Shown in pieces: positions 19,082 through 33,702 of a stretch of 44,510 bases of DNA. How positions within the stretch are numbered: position 1 is the first letter of the stretch; each line of letters opens with the position of its first letter. This DNA comes from Enterobacteria phage mEp460: the sequence record NC_019716.1; one strand, written 5' to 3'. The notes beneath the pieces are model-generated. The model worked only from the letters and a program-made list of their open reading frames with translations, was not told the origin of the DNA and did not search any database. The position numbers and the translations under genes were made by a program.

Positions 19082-19091
19082 TGGGGTGAAT

Positions 19092-22000
19092 ATGGCAGTA
19101 AAGATTTCAGGTGTACTGAAAGACGGTGCAGGTAAACCGGTACAGAACTGCACAATCCAGCTGAAAGCAAAACGTAACAGCACCACGGTGGTGGTGAACA
19201 CGGTGGCCTCCGAAAATCCGGATGAAGCCGGGCGTTACAGCATGGACGTTGAGTACGGTCAGTACAGCGTTATTCTGTTGGTGGAAGGCTTCCCGCCGTC
19301 ACATGCCGGGACCATCACCGTGTATGAAGATTCCCGACCCGGTTCGCTGAATGATTTTCTCGGTGCCATGACGGAGGATGATGCCCGTCCGGAGGCACTG
19401 CGCCGCTTTGAACTGATGGTGGAAGAGGTGGCGCATAACGCGTCCGCAGTGGCACAGAACACGGCTGCCGCAAAGAAGTCAGCCAGCGATGCCGGCACAT
19501 CTGCCCGTGAGGCGGCAACCCATGCAACCGATGCCGCAGGCTCAGCACGTGCCGCCAGCACGTCAGCCGGACAGGCTGCATCATCTGCTCAGTCAGCATC
19601 TTCCAGCGCAGGAACGGCATCAACAAAGGCCACTGAAGCATCAAAAAGTGCTGCCGCTGCAGAGTCCTCAAAAAGCGCGGCAGCCACCAGTGCCGGTGCG
19701 GCGAAAACGTCAGAAACGAATGCCGCAGCATCACAACTATCAGCAGCCACTTCTGCATCCACCGCGACCACGAAGGCGTCAGAAGCTGCCACCTCAGCCC
19801 GGGATGCGGCGGCCTCAAAAGAGGCAGCGAAATCATCAGAAACGAACGCATCATCAAGTGCCAGTAGTGCAGCTTCCTCGGCAACGGCGGCAGGAAATTC
19901 CGCGAAGGCCGCAAAAACGTCTGAGACGAATGCGGATAACAGCGCACAGGCGGCAGCAGACTCACAAACTGCATCGGCAAACTCCGCGACAGCAGCCAAA
20001 AAATCAGAAACCAACGCGAAAAATAGCGAGGCAGCAGCAAAGAGCAGCGAAACCAACGCTAAAGCCAGCGAAACTAATGCTAAATCCAGTGAAACAAACG
20101 CGGCGAAATCTGCAGCGGACGCACTTAATTATCGCAACCAGGCGCAAGGGATTGTAGGCACCAGCATCGGCCTCGGGGCATCACCGCGTGATTGTCCTGA
20201 TATTTCCGGCAACCCATCAGGGTATATCGGATTTATGCGCATTATGAGTAATGCAAAAGGCTTTCCATCGATTGCATCCGGTGAAAGCAGTCTTACGGGG
20301 TTTATTAGTCAGGTAGATGGAACACCAGCGTATACAGGTGTATTTCAGGGATGGGCTACGCGCTCGCTTTATACTTATCGCTGGAATCCGACAACAGGCC
20401 CGCAATGGACACGCCACGCTCGCAAAAATGAAGTGGACCGTCTTGACCAATGGAATAGCGAAACATGGTTATATAACCATGATAAATCCATGCGCCTGGG
20501 TTTAACCGGATCAACATGGGGGTGTTACAGCGACACACAAAAAAAATGGATACCGCTTGATGTTTCTCATGGTGGCACTGGCGCAAATAGCCTTGATGAC
20601 GCCAAAACTAATTTGCAAATCCCTGAGGGTGGATTAACAAAAGCGATGACCCTTAATGCCCCTGGTGGTGCAGTGGATGGCAAATACTACCCTGTCATAA
20701 TAGACACATCCGCAATGAATGGGAGCGGTGCTATGTTATGTCCTGTTGAAATAAAAACAGCAGGAGGTCCGGCATCAAATCCGCTTAATAGTAACTCATT
20801 TTTTGGGTTCATTCGATGTGGTGGCTGGAGTGACGTTCGCGATGTGGCTTACGGGTCATTTGTTTGCTATGAAAAAAATGAACTCGGGATACTTTGCATT
20901 AAAGCGTCGCAAAGAGATTATGCGCAGCATGTAGCTTTCTACATCCATAAAAGCGCTTTTCCTGTCGTTGTGCAAACTGGCTACAAGGCGAAAGTTAAGG
21001 TTCCAACAGAAGACTACGTAATTGGTGACAACGGGGTTAGATATAAGTTTGGTGTATCAACGTCAACGGAGGATAACGACAAGAACTTTGTTAAAAATGT
21101 TCTTGACTTCACTGGCGGTGAACATGGCTTCTACAGCAACCTTCCGTTCAGACAAGGGGTGTCAGAAAGGATTGCATTAACAAATGGCCTGAGTTTTGAC
21201 AAAAATTTTACCGTCACTATTCCTATATTTGTAAACAATGGTCAGATTAAAGCAACACAATCTTTCACCGCGTACGGTACAGACGCTTCAAACAGAACAT
21301 TTGTTTCTCAAAGATTACAATCCGAAGGAGGTCCGGTTGTCGATCAAACTGAACTAAGGGCCGCTAACGCTTCTGGTGAAATTATTGTCAGGGACATAAA
21401 TAATTCAGGGAACAGTAAGTTCTTTAATTTTAACCTTGATGGTACCTTCAGTTCTTATCAGGGATTGGTTGTTCACACAGGGCAAAACTGGAGCACTCAA
21501 CATACAGATAATGTAAATAAGTTTAAGCCAATAGCAGGGAGCGCAGGCGGTCCTGACGGAACAATGGTTGTTGGCGGATTCCATGCTCAATTTAGCGGTA
21601 ATTACGTCACACAATTCGCCGGTCGCAACTCCAAATTTTGGGCAAGAAGCTTTGAGGCTGGGGTTGATAAGGGATGGAAACGACTATTAACAGTAGACGA
21701 TCTCAATTCATCTACCGATCTTGCTGTCAGGTCATTAACCACATCTAACCCGGTAAAATCTGGCGGAGGGCGAATTGATGTCCTTGGAAGCACGTCAGAC
21801 TATAGCAAAATGGATTGCTTTGTACGTGGGTTTGATAGCACCGGTAATTCTCTCGCGTGGGCGTTGGGTTCATCAGTCGGCGTAAGTAAGATGCTGTCGC
21901 TAAAAAATTTCTTTAGCGGAGCTGAGATACTGTTAAATGGTAATGACGGCGCGGTTCAACTCAAAACAGGTGCTGTTAACGGGGCTAAAGCGCAGGCGCT

Positions 22001-22694
22001 CACTATCAACAAGGATGAGGTTAATTCAACTGTTGATTTAACTCTTACAAAACAAACAGGGACTGGCAATCGTTTTGTTTTACAGAACTTAGGTAATACA
22101 GAACTATCATTTGCCGCAAAAGTATGGGGATCAAGTGATCGACAAAACGTTTTTGAGGTTGGAACGTCTGCTGCGTATCTGTTTTATGCGCAAAAAACGT
22201 CAGCAGGCCAGTTGTTTGATGTAAATGGCGCTATTAATTGCACAACGCTGAATCAGTCATCAGACCGCGACCTTAAAGACGATATTCTCGTTATCAGCGA
22301 CGCGACGAAAGCAATCCGTAAAATGAACGGATACACCTACACGCTCAGGGAAAACGGGATGCCTTATGCTGGCGTTATTGCACAGGAAGTAATGGAGGCG
22401 ATACCAGAAGCTGTAGGATCGTTTACTCATTACGGTGAAGAGTTGCAGGGACCAACGGTTGACGGCAATGAATTACGTGAAGAAACACGTTATCTGAATG
22501 TTGACTACGCCGCCGTGACGGGGTTACTTGTTCAGGTCGCCCGTGAAACAGATGGTCGCGTTACCGCGCTGGAAGAGGAAAACATAACGCTACGTAAAAA
22601 TCTGGCAACAGCAGGCACCCGGATCAGCACTCTGGAAAATCAGGTAAGCGAACTGGTTGCACTTGTCGGGCAGTTAACAGGAAGCGAACATTGA
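19092..22694 (+). CDS. Side tail fibre protein with Ala/Ser-rich repeat tract and C-terminal intramolecular chaperone (peptidase S74-like) domain
   Basis: About 1200 aa; repeat tract at roughly 19440-20140 (KSSETNA-type repeats); C-terminal SDRDLKDDI...KMNGYTYTLRENG motif plus terminal coiled coil; ORF-track GTG start 19086, ATG 19092 preferred. Confidence 0.8.
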   Translation: MAVKISGVLKDGAGKPVQNCTIQLKAKRNSTTVVVNTVASENPDEAGRYSMDVEYGQYSVILLVEGFPPSHAGTITVYEDSRPGSLNDFLGAMTEDDARPEALRRFELMVEEVAHNASAVAQNTAAAKKSASDAGTSAREAATHATDAAGSARAASTSAGQAASSAQSASSSAGTASTKATEASKSAAAAESSKSAAATSAGAAKTSETNAAASQLSAATSASTATTKASEAATSARDAAASKEAAKSSETNASSSASSAASSATAAGNSAKAAKTSETNADNSAQAAADSQTASANSATAAKKSETNAKNSEAAAKSSETNAKASETNAKSSETNAAKSAADALNYRNQAQGIVGTSIGLGASPRDCPDISGNPSGYIGFMRIMSNAKGFPSIASGESSLTGFISQVDGTPAYTGVFQGWATRSLYTYRWNPTTGPQWTRHARKNEVDRLDQWNSETWLYNHDKSMRLGLTGSTWGCYSDTQKKWIPLDVSHGGTGANSLDDAKTNLQIPEGGLTKAMTLNAPGGAVDGKYYPVIIDTSAMNGSGAMLCPVEIKTAGGPASNPLNSNSFFGFIRCGGWSDVRDVAYGSFVCYEKNELGILCIKASQRDYAQHVAFYIHKSAFPVVVQTGYKAKVKVPTEDYVIGDNGVRYKFGVSTSTEDNDKNFVKNVLDFTGGEHGFYSNLPFRQGVSERIALTNGLSFDKNFTVTIPIFVNNGQIKATQSFTAYGTDASNRTFVSQRLQSEGGPVVDQTELRAANASGEIIVRDINNSGNSKFFNFNLDGTFSSYQGLVVHTGQNWSTQHTDNVNKFKPIAGSAGGPDGTMVVGGFHAQFSGNYVTQFAGRNSKFWARSFEAGVDKGWKRLLTVDDLNSSTDLAVRSLTTSNPVKSGGGRIDVLGSTSDYSKMDCFVRGFDSTGNSLAWALGSSVGVSKMLSLKNFFSGAEILLNGNDGAVQLKTGAVNGAKAQALTINKDEVNSTVDLTLTKQTGTGNRFVLQNLGNTELSFAAKVWGSSDRQNVFEVGTSAAYLFYAQKTSAGQLFDVNGAINCTTLNQSSDRDLKDDILVISDATKAIRKMNGYTYTLRENGMPYAGVIAQEVMEAIPEAVGSFTHYGEELQGPTVDGNELREETRYLNVDYAAVTGLLVQVARETDGRVTALEEENITLRKNLATAGTRISTLENQVSELVALVGQLTGSEH

Positions 22695-22730
22695 TATCCT
22701 TCAAGCCCTGAAGGAGGCTGTTCCTGGTAC

Positions 22731-22877
22731 GTTCAGACTGTTGTTGAGCTGGAAATCGCAACGGAGGAAGAAACTTCGTTGCTGGAAGTCTGGAAAAAGT
22801 ATCGGGTGTTGCTGAACCGTGTTGATACATCAACTGCACCTGATATTGAGTGGCTGGAAGAACCAAACACAATGTAA
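22731..22877 (+). pseudogene. 3' remnant of a tail fibre assembly (tfa) gene, no start codon, in frame with stf after its stop
   Basis: Translation [48 protein letters not shown] resembles Tfa C-termini; reading frame continues directly from the stf TGA at 22692-22694. Confidence 0.5.
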
Positions 22878-23302: not shown

Positions 23303-24400
23303 TCAAGAGGTCTTATTTCTGCTCCTTTGGAGCTCTTCAAAACGATTATGTAAAGATTTCGGATACAGTTCGGTATATACCTGCCATAGCACGTTTAATG
23401 AACGATGCCCTGTAACCTGGGCGACTTCCTCAATACTAAAACCAGCCTCAAATAAGCGACTTGCCCCTCCTCTACGCAAATCATGGTATCGCAGATCTTT
23501 AATACCTAATTTGCTTCTTACCCTCTGGAATCCCGCAGTAACAGAAGTGCTGTTATATGGAAAAATGAATTCCGATTTTTGGGGCTGTCGTTGGGCGATA
23601 TCCCAGGCTTCCCCAAGCAAGGCTACTTTCATGTGGTTGCCTTCCTTTTTGCGTGGATCTTTCCTGTCTCTTACGAGTATAGATTTTTGTTCCTGGTCGA
23701 GATCTTCCCATCGTAACCGGCATACTTCTCCGATTCGCATACAGGACCACACAGAAAATTTGAGGATATCAACGAACGGAATTTTTGAGCATTTATGAGT
23801 AGATCGTTGTTGAAGGCCTTCAATGAGCATGTCCAGTTCATCAGATGCTGGTCTACGATTACGACGGTTTGATTTTCCAATCAAACCAAGTTTAAGTAGA
23901 TATGGACGAGCACTTTTCGCCGGGTTTGATGTGTAATTAATTCCGTATACAGGTTTGGCCGCATCCAGAACACTGCCAAGATAACTAACATCGTGGCTGA
24001 CTGTTGCTGGACCTGCGCCAGCGTTGTTTCTTAGCCTGCAATGTTCAATTACGTCATTTTCTGTCAGTTCAGATAGTTTGATCGCGGAGATGTCACTATC
24101 CATAAGCAGTTCTAGCACATATCTTTTAGTACGGCCTGCTTTACCTCCGGCATTTGGGTCATTTAAATATTTGTGTAGTAAGTCACGGACTGTAAGTCCG
24201 TCAACTGCATTTGATGATGGAATGCCATATAGATCTAATTCCATCACTTTCTGTGTGCCCCATGTTTTGGCATGAGCATGTTTAGGGAATGTTTTGCTTT
24301 CCCTGTAAGTGATAACACCTTTTTCATTGATAATCACATTACAGCGATAGCGTGGTGTGCCAACGGATTTTAGTCGTTTCTCTATGTTATAGTACGCCAT
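23303..24400 (-). CDS. int: Tyrosine integrase (site-specific recombinase)
   Basis: 365 aa; C-terminal catalytic-type region (HDLRRGGASRL...GHRSLNVLWQVY) typical of phage integrases. Confidence 0.9.
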   Translation of the reverse strand: MAYYNIEKRLKSVGTPRYRCNVIINEKGVITYRESKTFPKHAHAKTWGTQKVMELDLYGIPSSNAVDGLTVRDLLHKYLNDPNAGGKAGRTKRYVLELLMDSDISAIKLSELTENDVIEHCRLRNNAGAGPATVSHDVSYLGSVLDAAKPVYGINYTSNPAKSARPYLLKLGLIGKSNRRNRRPASDELDMLIEGLQQRSTHKCSKIPFVDILKFSVWSCMRIGEVCRLRWEDLDQEQKSILVRDRKDPRKKEGNHMKVALLGEAWDIAQRQPQKSEFIFPYNSTSVTAGFQRVRSKLGIKDLRYHDLRRGGASRLFEAGFSIEEVAQVTGHRSLNVLWQVYTELYPKSLHNRFEELQRSRNKTS

Positions 24401-24701
24401 TACACGACCTCGTTATTTCGGGTTCCCATAAAACGTGGGAACCTGTGCGGGAACCTAACGCGAGAAAAATAGCCTGAAATGTTCAAAAATGCACGATAAT
24501 CCTGAAATACAGAAAACTAATCAAACCAGCGTGATGCCTGAAAAAACTGGCGCTTACTGGAGTTCTCGGTTTAGCATTGCTCCTATGCTCGATAGGATGT
24601 ACCGTTTTTGAAAAACAAATAGTTATATACTTTGTGGGAGCCTATTGGGAACCCGGCGTTTTCATTTCAAGGTGTAATCCATACGCGGCTTAAGAATGAG
24701 A

Positions 24702-24707
24702 TATAAT
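24702..24707 (+). promoter_or_regulatory. Putative -10 hexamer (TATAAT) for the GNAT-like moron gene
   Basis: Perfect TATAAT 30 nt upstream of ATG 24737, GAGAGG SD in between; -35 not clear. Confidence 0.35.
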
Positions 24708-24736
24708 GCGACTTTTAGTGTTCCGCTTGAGAGGCC

Positions 24737-25273
24737 ATGATGCTTACCCTGGACGAGATAGGTCAATCAGTACGTAACAATATCCAGTTGATTATTGATC
24801 ATGTCGGCTTACCTCTTGCTGTTGGTCCGCTCAGTGATGATGATTACAAGATTCTGTGTGGTGGCTATGGTGAGCTTGAATGGGACTATGCGTTAAGTAC
24901 CTATGGCAACTCCAGAGAAAAGTATGAGTTCTGCATAAAACTTGTTCAGCAAGGTCGGGTTCAGGGAATACCATCAGGAGCAGCAATTTGTGTTTATGGG
25001 GTTGAAGAAAACATCTTTCGTATCCATATGATCGAAAGGTTTTCTAGAGAAGATGAATCTCACCCATTGAAAGGGCGCATGGTTTTACTCACTCTTATGA
25101 GTGCTTTTATATTTTGTAAAGCTGTTGAATGTAAAGTTGTCCACATTGTAGAGCCAGTACCAGAACTGGTGCAGTATTACGAGTCTTTTGGTTTCCGCAT
25201 GGAACAGTGCGGTTATGTGATGTCGGCAGTCATTGATGAGCTGCAGGATATCTTTCTTAAATTTGCTCAGTAG
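24737..25273 (+). CDS. GNAT-fold (acetyltransferase-like) protein, putative; moron
   Basis: 178 aa; C-terminal YYESFGF motif and preceding hydrophobic strand suggest a GNAT fold; opposite strand to int and xis; GC visibly lower than neighbours. Confidence 0.45.
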   Translation: MMLTLDEIGQSVRNNIQLIIDHVGLPLAVGPLSDDDYKILCGGYGELEWDYALSTYGNSREKYEFCIKLVQQGRVQGIPSGAAICVYGVEENIFRIHMIERFSREDESHPLKGRMVLLTLMSAFIFCKAVECKVVHIVEPVPELVQYYESFGFRMEQCGYVMSAVIDELQDIFLKFAQ

Positions 25274-25469
25274 GTATAGACGAGAAGGGTCTACAAATTG
25301 TAGGATACCCGTCCAGATTACCTTAAAGGTACATCTATGGCAGTCGTTTTGTGCTTAAACTACTAAGAAACGATGTCACCAATCGACATGATCGATTGGC
25401 ATAAGTTAGCGAAACAAGCTAGCTTTAAAGAAAGGGTTAGAGACGCCTTTACTGTCTCGGGAGTTTTCT

Positions 25470-25643
25470 ATGAAAGATCAAAAAGCAACCAAGCCACAGG
25501 TTAAGTTCGACACAATGAAAGCATTCGCAGGTATGGGTGCTGCTGTTGAAGTTCTGATGAAGGCTGCTCCTAATGCGTTCACTCACGCTACTGTCTCTGG
25601 TAAAGAGCAGCAGGGTAAACTTCGTCGTCGCAAAGCAGCATGA
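25470..25643 (+). CDS. Small basic hypothetical protein (57 aa), not in ORF track
   Basis: ATG with GGGAG SD; ends in KLRRRKAA; perfect 8-bp inverted repeat CCAATCGA-N5-TCGATTGG about 85 nt upstream; followed by terminator. Confidence 0.35.
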   Translation: MKDQKATKPQVKFDTMKAFAGMGAAVEVLMKAAPNAFTHATVSGKEQQGKLRRRKAA

Positions 25644-25663
25644 TCATAGCTGGTGCTTTTTGA

Positions 25664-25689
25664 AAACCCGCCTTCAGGCGGGTTTTTAC
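25664..25689. terminator. Bidirectional-looking intrinsic terminator between the moron cassette and the xis-like gene
   Basis: AAACCCGCC-TTCA-GGCGGGTTT hairpin with AAAA upstream and TTTT downstream. Confidence 0.7.
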
Positions 25690-25690
25690 T

Positions 25691-25999
25691 TTAGTGATGT
25701 TCTTTGTCCTTCTGTTTGACTGTTCTGACCTGTTCCCACTCAGCACGCCCTTCTTCTCGCCTTTTGTCTATGTATTCCGCAAGATCCTGAATATTGATGC
25801 AACGTTTTGCTTTTTGTGATGTGCCGATGCGATATGTTGGAACGGGCAACTTACAAGCGTTTGCTTTTGCTTCTGCCGTGGCTGGACTCATGCCAAAGTA
25901 CTTTTGGCTAACTGCTGAGAGTTCAATGTTTGGGGTATTGAATTCAGCCATCAGTAAAAACAAGGTGTTCATAATTTTCTCCATCAAAACCGGCTGCAC
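25691..25999 (-). CDS. PrtN/excisionase-like DNA-binding protein (putative Xis)
   Basis: Pattern FLLMAEF...YFGMSPATA...LPVPTYRIG.SQKA...IQDLAEYIDKRR typical of PrtN-like prophage regulators; probable start at internal ATG 25972. Confidence 0.6.
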   Translation of the reverse strand: MQPVLMEKIMNTLFLLMAEFNTPNIELSAVSQKYFGMSPATAEAKANACKLPVPTYRIGTSQKAKRCINIQDLAEYIDKRREEGRAEWEQVRTVKQKDKEHH

Positions 26000-33425: not shown

Positions 33426-33510
33426 TTCTGCCATTCCGGGACGTTACACTGTTCAGGCACCTTATAAAGCGGGTGCCGGGCGTGGAAACCCGGAATTCAC
33501 CAAAGCGCAC

Positions 33511-33534
33511 AACCGCGCTCTTGCGGTTTTTTTG
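33511..33534 (+). terminator. Intrinsic terminator in the early-right operon (tR1-like)
   Basis: AACCGC-GCTCTT-GCGGTT hairpin followed by TTTTTTT. Confidence 0.6.
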
Positions 33535-33702
33535 TGTAATGAGCAGCATTACGCCCAAATTATGGTGGGGCGTGCAGGGCCAACTTCGGTTGGGCCGGGT
33601 TCTTTGGTGACCGGTATTTCCACCCCTGTACGTCTCACCACCAATAAGGTCGTGGAAAGCCTTGGTGGTGAGTTATTAAAAATCACCAAAGAGGCTGCCA
33701 TC

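Follow-up and report, generated by a model that had tools for sequence, protein, structure and literature searches.

Known GNAT toxins of type II toxin-antitoxin systems (TacAT, AtaRT, KacAT, and ItaRT) work with a ribbon-helix-helix (RHH) partner: TacT, AtaT, and KacT have an upstream RHH/DUF1778 antitoxin and bind tRNA. Here we describe a two-gene cassette of Enterobacteria phage mEp460 that encodes a divergent GNAT-fold protein of 178 amino acids (ORF178) and, downstream on the same strand, a basic protein of 57 amino acids (ORF57). The DNA analyzed, referred to as the window, is the whole 44,510-nucleotide sequence record NC_019716.1, and all positions without another locus name refer to it. 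By analogy, the unit would work most like a GNAT toxin-antitoxin pair, yet it fails the defining features of that family. It resembles these systems in its small, possibly protease-labile partner, in a catalytic-type tyrosine in motif B, and in its prophage location. It differs from them in that the partner is encoded downstream, lacks an RHH/DUF1778 match, and sits behind its own promoter-like element and a leader of about 150 nucleotides; in that the GNAT protein is acidic (isoelectric point [pI] 4.3–4.9) and unseen by any Pfam GNAT profile; and in that conservation is higher in the partner than in the enzyme. About 7% of complete E. coli genomes carry the unit, many O157:H7 strains among them; it is also widespread in Salmonella and found across Enterobacterales, and both proteins are listed as hypothetical in every database that we consulted. 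Searches of the literature for mEp460, the protein accessions, GNAT morons, and GNAT defense systems yielded no paper on this pair.

Three other groups of described systems bear on the cassette. We compared ORF178 with the protein N-terminal acetyltransferases NatD/Naa40, Naa20, Naa50/60, and Ard1 and the bacterial enzymes RimI/RimJ, to which it is 9–12% identical. NatD, whose substrate is a basic tail, shares an N-terminal helical extension with ORF178, and the YESLGF sequence of RimI aligns with ORF178 motif B. However, these enzymes have a Q/RxxGxG/A loop where ORF178 has a longer HPLxG(R/K)M loop, none has a dedicated small partner gene, and ORF178 is phage-borne. The cassette resembles phage morons, such as HK97 gp15, lambda bor and lom, and the stx genes in the Q-S region, in appearing to be an autonomous unit with promoter-like elements and a terminator, in its att-proximal, Q-holin, or tail-module positions, in its variable presence among related phages, and in a composition unlike the phage average. 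The cassette differs in that its two genes, each preceded by a promoter-like element, are interdependent and have a conserved structured RNA between them, and its guanine-plus-cytosine (GC) content equals that of int and xis. Lastly, Panacea-domain (PanA) toxin-antitoxin pairs fill the same slot in the sister phages Lys8385Vzw and SKA5 as well as in 208 E. coli genomes; their proteins are unrelated to the GNAT-ORF57 pair, with a SocA_Panacea antitoxin encoded upstream of a 139-amino acid partner.

An apparently self-contained cassette with two paired genes

The cargo unit between the P′ arm of attP (approximately 24655) and the terminator appears self-contained. Its parts are, in order, a promoter-like element, the divergent GNAT-fold gene, a second promoter-like element, the structured leader, the 57-amino acid gene, and the terminator:

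24702–24707, plus strand: TATAAT, the −10-like box of candidate promoter P1 for the GNAT gene; TAtAAT or TAcAAT at the same position in relatives from other genera and phage contexts
24737–25273, plus strand: ORF178, divergent GNAT-fold protein of 178 amino acids (phrog_4350); likely true start at 24740
25277–25306, plus strand: candidate internal promoter P2, TAGACG-18 nucleotides-TAGGAT, directly after the GNAT stop codon
25315–25469, plus strand: structured leader RNA of ORF57, with hairpins H1–H5 and covariation
25319–25331 (H1), 25344–25373 (H2), 25377–25401 (H3), 25403–25425 (H4), and 25440–25458 (H5), plus strand: leader hairpins, from folding and alignment
25470–25643, plus strand: ORF57, basic partner of 57 amino acids (phrog_2741); core FDTMKAFAGMGAAVEVLMKAAPNAF, C terminus QGKLRRRKAA
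25663–25686, both strands: intrinsic terminator hairpin common to the cassette (plus) and the converging xis gene (minus); 11-nucleotide arms, −22.1 kcal/mol, z −3.59

The two plus-strand open reading frames (ORFs), the TATAAT box, and the bidirectional terminator had all been reported in a preliminary description made from the sequence, and each stands. The terminator hairpin is flanked by an A-run and a T-run, one at each side, and a terminator also lies 3′ of the small ORF in all relatives examined. We did not find a convincing −35 element for P1, and a consensus promoter scan of the window called neither P1 nor P2. Among 29 relatives, however, the TAnGAT of P2 is invariant and the spacing is preserved. 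The P2 position is occupied in Shewanella by TTGATA-16-TATAAT, a near-consensus promoter that matches at 11 of 12 positions, and in Xenorhabdus by TAGACA-16-TAGGAT; in some relatives, the −35-like TAG overlaps the GNAT stop codon. The interval between attP and the GNAT gene encodes no ORF.

The GNAT gene and ORF57 form an obligate pair and are transferred together between phages. In all 105 loci that we fetched through the GNAT protein, a homologue of ORF57 lies downstream and on the same strand, separated from the GNAT gene by 93–197 nucleotides (93–248 nucleotides overall). These pairs occupy at least five positions. In dusA prophages of E. coli and Salmonella, the pair lies between attL and xis. 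In Atlantibacter, Citrobacter, Edwardsiella, and phage Eeyore, it is found between the Q antiterminator and the holin; in Photorhabdus, it is within the tail module of a myovirus; in Shewanella, it is at one end of a prophage; and in Morganella, it has int on one side and the tail fiber on the other. Pairing extends to Morganella and to Eeyore, whose GNAT protein is 42% identical. The Eeyore homologue of ORF57 (record PP925821; locus L116, 4298–4459) is a 53-amino acid protein, MEMKKERLFDTIQTYRKAGEALDFLMKVGPALEESAQAPSQERQGRRRVREAA, that is unannotated, the record having four ORFs of 30–38 amino acids in its place. Taken together, the anatomy of the cassette and the obligate pairing of its genes are conclusions in which we have high confidence.

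One distant GNAT homologue (E 2e-17; locus L202, 3001–3839) adjoins an integrase and is followed by a 52-amino acid protein and then a terminator. This small protein is acidic, retains an FD.T motif, and ends in -PKAA. Of all partner features, the -KAA end persists furthest across the family; charge complementarity is not universal. A lone chromosomal homologue, P0140 (246 amino acids; locus L198, 4001–4741), lies between a PTS transporter gene and glnS and has no small partner gene. By eye, its C-terminal extension of about 55 amino acids resembles ORF57, but a natural GNAT-ORF57 fusion is unsupported (hhalign probability 0.3%).

The two proteins and the leader between them

ORF178 belongs to the GNAT superfamily by its fold and motif B, and not by motif A or sequence profiles. 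It has the mixed α/β fold of GNATs (β1-α1-α2-β2-4-α3-β5-α4-β6), and its best structural matches are protein N-terminal acetyltransferases; the closest viral structures are weak matches, with a template-modeling (TM) score ≤0.63. The YYESFGF motif that had suggested a GNAT is present, and its Y148, G152, and F153 are invariant in 31 relatives. Other invariant residues are H97 and E100 on β4. In an hhalign comparison, LVQYYESFGF of ORF178 aligned to AIALYESLGF of RimI. Motif A, the Q/RxxGxG/A acetyl-CoA loop between β4 and α3, is not present in the ORF178 family. The loop in its place is longer than the canonical one, comprising 13 residues (FSREDESHPLKGRM) with a single glycine, in which H109-P110-L111-x-G113 and M115 are invariant, as expressed by the motif HPLxG(R/K)M. 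This loop could still bind CoA through its backbone.

Profile searches with ORF178 gave no match in Pfam (E ≤1), NCBIfam, PADLOC, or PDB profiles, and ten distant relatives likewise lacked a Pfam match. PHROGs places the protein in phrog_4350, a family without assigned function. The family is small, with 92 representatives at E ≤0.001 in an exhaustive search of 1.8 billion cluster representatives. The gene is under purifying selection, with a ratio of nonsynonymous to synonymous divergence (dN/dS) of 0.04–0.24. As relatives begin with MLTL and a GAGG Shine-Dalgarno sequence ends at 24734, the second ATG, at 24740, is the likelier start and would give a protein of 177 amino acids. Two acidic runs, DDDY and ELEWDY, are conserved in the family and probably belong to the part of the GNAT fold that lines the acceptor site.

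Judged from its sequence, ORF57 is a real, conserved gene under purifying selection: dN/dS is 0.03–0.3, in addition to its presence as a partner in 105 of 105 loci. The preliminary description called it unannotated; in fact, it is annotated as a hypothetical protein in mEp460 and RefSeq. ORF57 has no match in Pfam, NCBIfam, PDB profiles, or PADLOC, and PHROGs offers only a family of unknown function. Every family member ends in AA or VA, usually as -RKAA, and both M1-K2 and the lysine of the -KAA end are nearly invariant. The pI is 4.3–4.9 for the GNAT protein and 9.6–10.8 for ORF57 throughout the 33 distinct pairs. ORF57 is also the more conserved protein (89–98% identity versus 66–72% for the GNAT protein). 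Its synonymous divergence is approximately ten-fold below that of the adjacent GNAT gene in the same locus pairs (for example, dS 0.11 versus 1.5 for locus L075), possibly from strong codon selection, overlapping constraint at the nucleotide level, or recombination that homogenizes the right half of the cassette. A 43-amino acid ORF at 25373–25504, which overlaps the inverted repeat described below, was rejected as its ATG is lost in relatives.

The series of leader hairpins starts about 10 nucleotides downstream of P2, and the ORF57 Shine-Dalgarno sequence, GGGAG (25459–25463), directly follows H5. H3 contains a perfect inverted repeat, CCAATCGA-N5-TCGATTGG (25379–25399), that is unique in the window and had 0 matches in 100 shuffles. 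The preliminary description reported this repeat correctly; its reading as a DNA operator is one that we reject. C-to-U and A-to-G changes at H3 in relatives keep pairing only as U-G or G-U; these wobbles would be A-C mismatches on the other strand, which points to a plus-strand RNA rather than a DNA palindrome. H3 is one of 4–5 leader hairpins.

To score the leader, we compared pairing in 29 distinct sequences with that obtained with slid partners. The pair counts exclude H2, which MAFFT could not put in register. In the leader, 89.7% of cells were paired versus 21–42% with slid partners; the covariation score was 0.231 versus ≤0.08; and cells with double changes numbered 34 versus 0–10, with the compensatory changes mostly in H4. 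RNAalifold recovers H1, H3, and H4, and the fold has a z-score of −3.09 for the plus strand versus −2.05 for the minus strand. Rfam had no match at E ≤1 within 25274–25469 and none at the gathering score. Because it covaries and lacks an Rfam match, the leader is a clean candidate for a new family of cis-regulatory RNA. With a covariance model, each Enterobacteriaceae locus gave exactly one copy, and none was found in Edwardsiella, Photorhabdus, Xenorhabdus, Shewanella, Morganella, or phage Eeyore. The leaders of distant clades are hairpin-rich and not alignable.

Alternative cargo and candidate functions

The slot exists as two alternative alleles, one with the GNAT cargo and the other with the Panacea cargo. 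Sister phages Lys8385Vzw and SKA5 match the window for int-attP up to 24653 and also for ORF57, the terminator, and xis. Their slot (locus L114, 3455–4443, for Lys8385Vzw; locus L115 for SKA5) carries genes for a 190-amino acid Panacea protein (Pfam SocA_Panacea, E 2e-19) and the 139-amino acid protein, a candidate toxin that belongs to no known family in the libraries searched. In this allele, ORF57 starts 39 nucleotides after the stop codon of the 139-amino acid protein and the leader is absent, the breakpoint of the swap lying just before the ORF57 Shine-Dalgarno sequence. Of 5426 complete E. coli genomes, 562 have ORF57, 358 the GNAT gene, and 208 the Panacea cargo. Since the interval filled by the Panacea pairs, which runs from the attP P′ arm to the ORF57 Shine-Dalgarno sequence, is exactly the one that the GNAT gene and leader fill here, the slot accepts cargo of the toxin-antitoxin type, making the attP-to-xis interval of dusA phages a swap site for such cargo.

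The swap leaves ORF57 without its GNAT gene. Segregating sites in ORF57 are 8 synonymous and 3 nonsynonymous behind GNAT (69 loci) versus 3 synonymous and 15 nonsynonymous behind Panacea (67 loci; Fisher p 0.005). In the orphan copies, K2E is near-fixed, and changes occur at the otherwise invariant A33, P34, A56, and A57. Diverged Panacea pairs elsewhere have no ORF57, and therefore ORF57 is not a partner of the Panacea pair. Its drift after GNAT loss suggests that the function of ORF57 depends on the GNAT protein.

With its candidate promoters and terminator, the unit appears to behave as a phage moron, as had been proposed. A promoter-like element precedes each gene, a terminator closes the unit, and closely related phages differ in carrying it, the sister phages having the Panacea pair instead. 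Its base composition, however, is not unlike that of its neighbors: GC is 0.431 for the cassette, 0.429 for int, 0.434 for dinI, and 0.44 for xis. The low GC given for the cassette in the preliminary description is correct relative to the window overall (0.509), but the reduction is common to the whole block dinI-int-attP-cargo-xis (0.43–0.44). The unit is also found in prophages that have otherwise decayed. In a heavily decayed prophage remnant at dusA in E. coli O157 FDAARGOS_293 (locus L002, 7524–13172), only pseudogenes are left of the exonuclease, methyltransferase, DUF2303, and tail genes, but both cassette genes and the xis-like gene are intact and encode proteins 100% identical to those of the window.

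The cassette is most plausibly a toxin-antitoxin-like or phage-defense module. We give a toxin-antitoxin-like mechanism with the GNAT protein as effector a probability of roughly one in three (about 0.35), and a GNAT toxin with an unusual downstream partner is the best single guess among the three roles that were originally put forward. This reading fits because the alternative allele of the slot is a toxin-antitoxin-type pair and because the cassette is intact in the decayed O157 prophage. The acidic GNAT protein would be an acetyltransferase effector that acts on a basic protein or peptide, aminoacyl-tRNA being a less likely target. ORF57 would restrain it by binding, probably through insertion of its Lys/Arg-rich tail into the acidic acceptor groove, and would be produced in excess from its own promoter and a stable structured mRNA. 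As its conserved -KAA C terminus resembles ClpXP degrons, ORF57 is probably short-lived and degraded by ClpXP. Terminal Ala-Ala is a critical feature of ClpXP C-terminal degrons (PMC10862746), and the MuA degron reads ...RRKKAI (PMC12723719). If ORF57 synthesis stopped, either through prophage loss or through host shut-off by an infecting phage, the GNAT protein would be released, and the unit would serve the prophage as a module of the addiction or abortive-infection type. Such a module would add to the GNAT-based systems a new type of partner and a new regulation, and would explain the survival of the unit in decayed prophages. More tentatively, it may represent a new class of toxin-antitoxin/abortive-infection module, in which a profile-invisible GNAT effector is held by a ClpXP-labile -KAA partner whose output is set by an undescribed leader RNA, and which temperate phages of Enterobacterales and Shewanella spread as a moron.

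Several observations weigh against a GNAT toxin restrained by ORF57. A strongly acidic GNAT protein is a poor fit to a tRNA substrate, and its use of acetyl-CoA is not assured, since the canonical loop is replaced by HPLxG(R/K)M. The greater conservation of the partner is the opposite of what is seen in most toxin-antitoxin pairs, and a partner that is encoded downstream and lacks a DNA-binding domain match is unlike those of known GNAT toxins. PADLOC has no match for the pair. With regard to the degron, an Ala-Ala end alone was insufficient for degradation in the screen cited above, and an antepenultimate lysine was not among the favored residues (PMC10862746). Moreover, all orphan ORF57 copies derive from one replacement event; as a consequence, the finding that the GNAT gene never occurs alone does not fix which partner is harmful.

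The charge and conservation patterns can also be read as those of an enzyme and its substrate, a possibility that we hold tentatively as the main rival and consider only slightly less probable. Here ORF57 would be active on a host target that is conserved (the ribosome, nucleic acid, or a protease, for example), and the GNAT protein would acetylate its N-terminal Met-Lys or a tail lysine to activate, neutralize, or stabilize it; in the neutralizing version, which would be a type VII-like toxin-antitoxin system, ORF57 is the toxin and the GNAT protein serves as an enzymatic antitoxin. The structural matches of ORF178 to protein N-terminal acetyltransferases, the pairing of an acidic enzyme with a basic partner in 33 of 33 pairs, the conserved DDDY and ELEWDY runs at the likely acceptor site, and the near invariance of M1-K2 and of the -KAA lysine are all consistent with this arrangement, and an ORF57 that fits a conserved host target would be expected to be far more conserved than its GNAT protein. 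The near-fixed K2E of the orphans and the deletion of their promoter and leader would fit inactivation of a harmful ORF57 before the GNAT gene was lost. However, the distant homologue has an acidic partner, so the charge logic is not universal, and a labile-looking C terminus with strong independent expression would be unusual for a toxin. If correct, the locus would encode a rare phage protein acetyltransferase with its own dedicated small substrate. A role in lysogenic conversion or host physiology is less probable. The GNAT protein would then acetylate a host metabolite or protein for the benefit of the lysogen, with ORF57 as cofactor or regulator and neither protein toxic. Such a role would agree with the classic conversion-gene positions of the pair (next to att, between Q and holin, and between int and tail fiber), with its reading from the side of the host dusA promoter in the lysogen, with its persistence in decayed prophages, and with its presence in 358 of 5426 complete E. 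coli genomes and wide distribution in Salmonella, but it leaves unexplained why a 57-amino acid partner equipped with a promoter of its own, an elaborate leader, and an end resembling a degron should be obligatory, and the alternative allele of the slot is of the toxin-antitoxin type rather than a metabolic gene.

Phages also use acetylation against host immunity, as AcrVA5 inactivates Cas12a in this way. An anti-defense acetyltransferase that inactivates a host immune protein with ORF57 as helper, another of the roles originally suggested, would suit a GNAT fold in a phage accessory region, and in the circular genome the cassette lies 3′ of the phage-borne dusA promoter region and could be expressed early. 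We nonetheless regard this role as quite unlikely, because many relatives carry the pair in the late operon (Q-holin) or within tail genes, too late to counter a defense; in addition, the pair is maintained in defective prophages that no longer infect, and the closest viral structures are only weak matches. Least probable of all is that the two genes are unrelated neighbors, with ORF57 and the terminator belonging to the phage backbone and the GNAT gene alone being cargo. In the E. coli dusA phages, ORF57, the terminator, and xis are indeed common to phages that differ in their upstream cargo. However, chance neighborhood is largely refuted by co-occurrence, as the pair is found together in at least five unrelated positions and down to approximately 25–40% GNAT identity; diverged Panacea pairs lack ORF57, and orphan ORF57 is under relaxed constraint.

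Integration at dusA and neighboring features

Elements with dusA-specific integrases have their attachment site inside dusA and the integrase next to the dusA 5′ end, for which they bring a replacement (PMC4482086). The integrase is the sole feature common to all of them (Farrugia et al. 2015, PMC4482086). That work describes the integration system only, and the GNAT-ORF57 cargo is not included. The window derives from an mEp460-like lambdoid phage whose integration site is the 5′ end of dusA. Between 22993 and 26584, a region that is 99.6% identical to phage mEp460_4F5, the gene order is dinI (minus), int (minus), a 40-codon ORF (plus), ORF178 (plus), ORF57 (plus), the terminator hairpin, the PrtN-family excisionase-like gene (minus), and an exonuclease gene (minus). 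The features that flank the cassette are:

23303–24400, minus strand: tyrosine integrase of the dusA-specific type, outside the cassette (Pfam Phage_integrase, E 3.5e-20; adjoins dusA in prophage records and chromosomes)
24415–24655, no strand assigned: attP (GGGAACC-type arm repeats and alignment of attP, attB, and attL)
24489–24611, plus strand: phage-borne replacement of the dusA 5′ end, 40 codons (annotated as tRNA-dihydrouridine synthase in RefSeq and phage records; aligned with native Sakai dusA)
25691–25999, minus strand: excisionase-like gene of the PrtN family (Pfam PyocinActivator, E 4e-23; phrog_1300, excisionase)

As in other dusA-specific integrase (DAI) elements, the site is inside the dusA 5′ end, the integrase is adjacent, and a substitute 5′ end is supplied. 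Alignment of attP, attB, and attL, and of the empty dusA site of O157:H7 Sakai with occupied dusA, places the switch from host to phage sequence, and hence the crossover, within ATGCTCGA at 24585–24592. GGGAACC arm-type repeats lie on one side at 24419–24428 (inverted), 24435–24443, and 24447–24455 and on the other at 24634–24642 and 24645–24654. Because these five repeats flank the crossover, as expected of arm-type integrase sites, we assign 24415–24655 as attP. Prophage-derived records of related phages stop at approximately 24591. Matches in E. coli chromosomes begin at 24486, where the cassette is directly 3′ of a truncated host dusA, and the element was observed in chromosomal dusA contexts in E. 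coli, Salmonella, and Morganella.

Upon integration, the phage-borne dusA 5′ end is joined to the body of host dusA at attR. We had considered the 40-amino acid ORF at 24489–24611 as a possible cassette gene and rejected it, as it is the phage copy of the dusA 5′ end. The preliminary description viewed the cassette as an insertion between int and the xis-like gene. This needs revision: attP and the dusA 5′ copy lie between int and the cassette, and the order int-attP-cargo-xis is found in all relatives within this phage group. Since attP lies between them, int and the xis-like gene are at opposite ends of the prophage. In the lysogen, the cassette is at the left end of the prophage and is the first unit downstream of the host dusA promoter.

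Three features elsewhere in the window were also recorded. Between the tail-fiber gene and dinI, at 22700–22834, there is a sub-threshold Rfam match to IS009 (87.9 bits versus a gathering threshold of 117), which is absent at the gathering score in a scan of the whole window. The 1202-amino acid tail-fiber protein (19086–22694) contains a long, low-complexity repeat rich in alanine, serine, and threonine, at roughly residues 110–340. Matches to the Hfq-binding RNA isrK (33457–33533, 67 bits) and to C4 antisense RNA (33558–33645, 83.6 bits) are above the Rfam gathering thresholds; together, at 33457–33645, they indicate a P1/P7-type antisense control region for an antirepressor.

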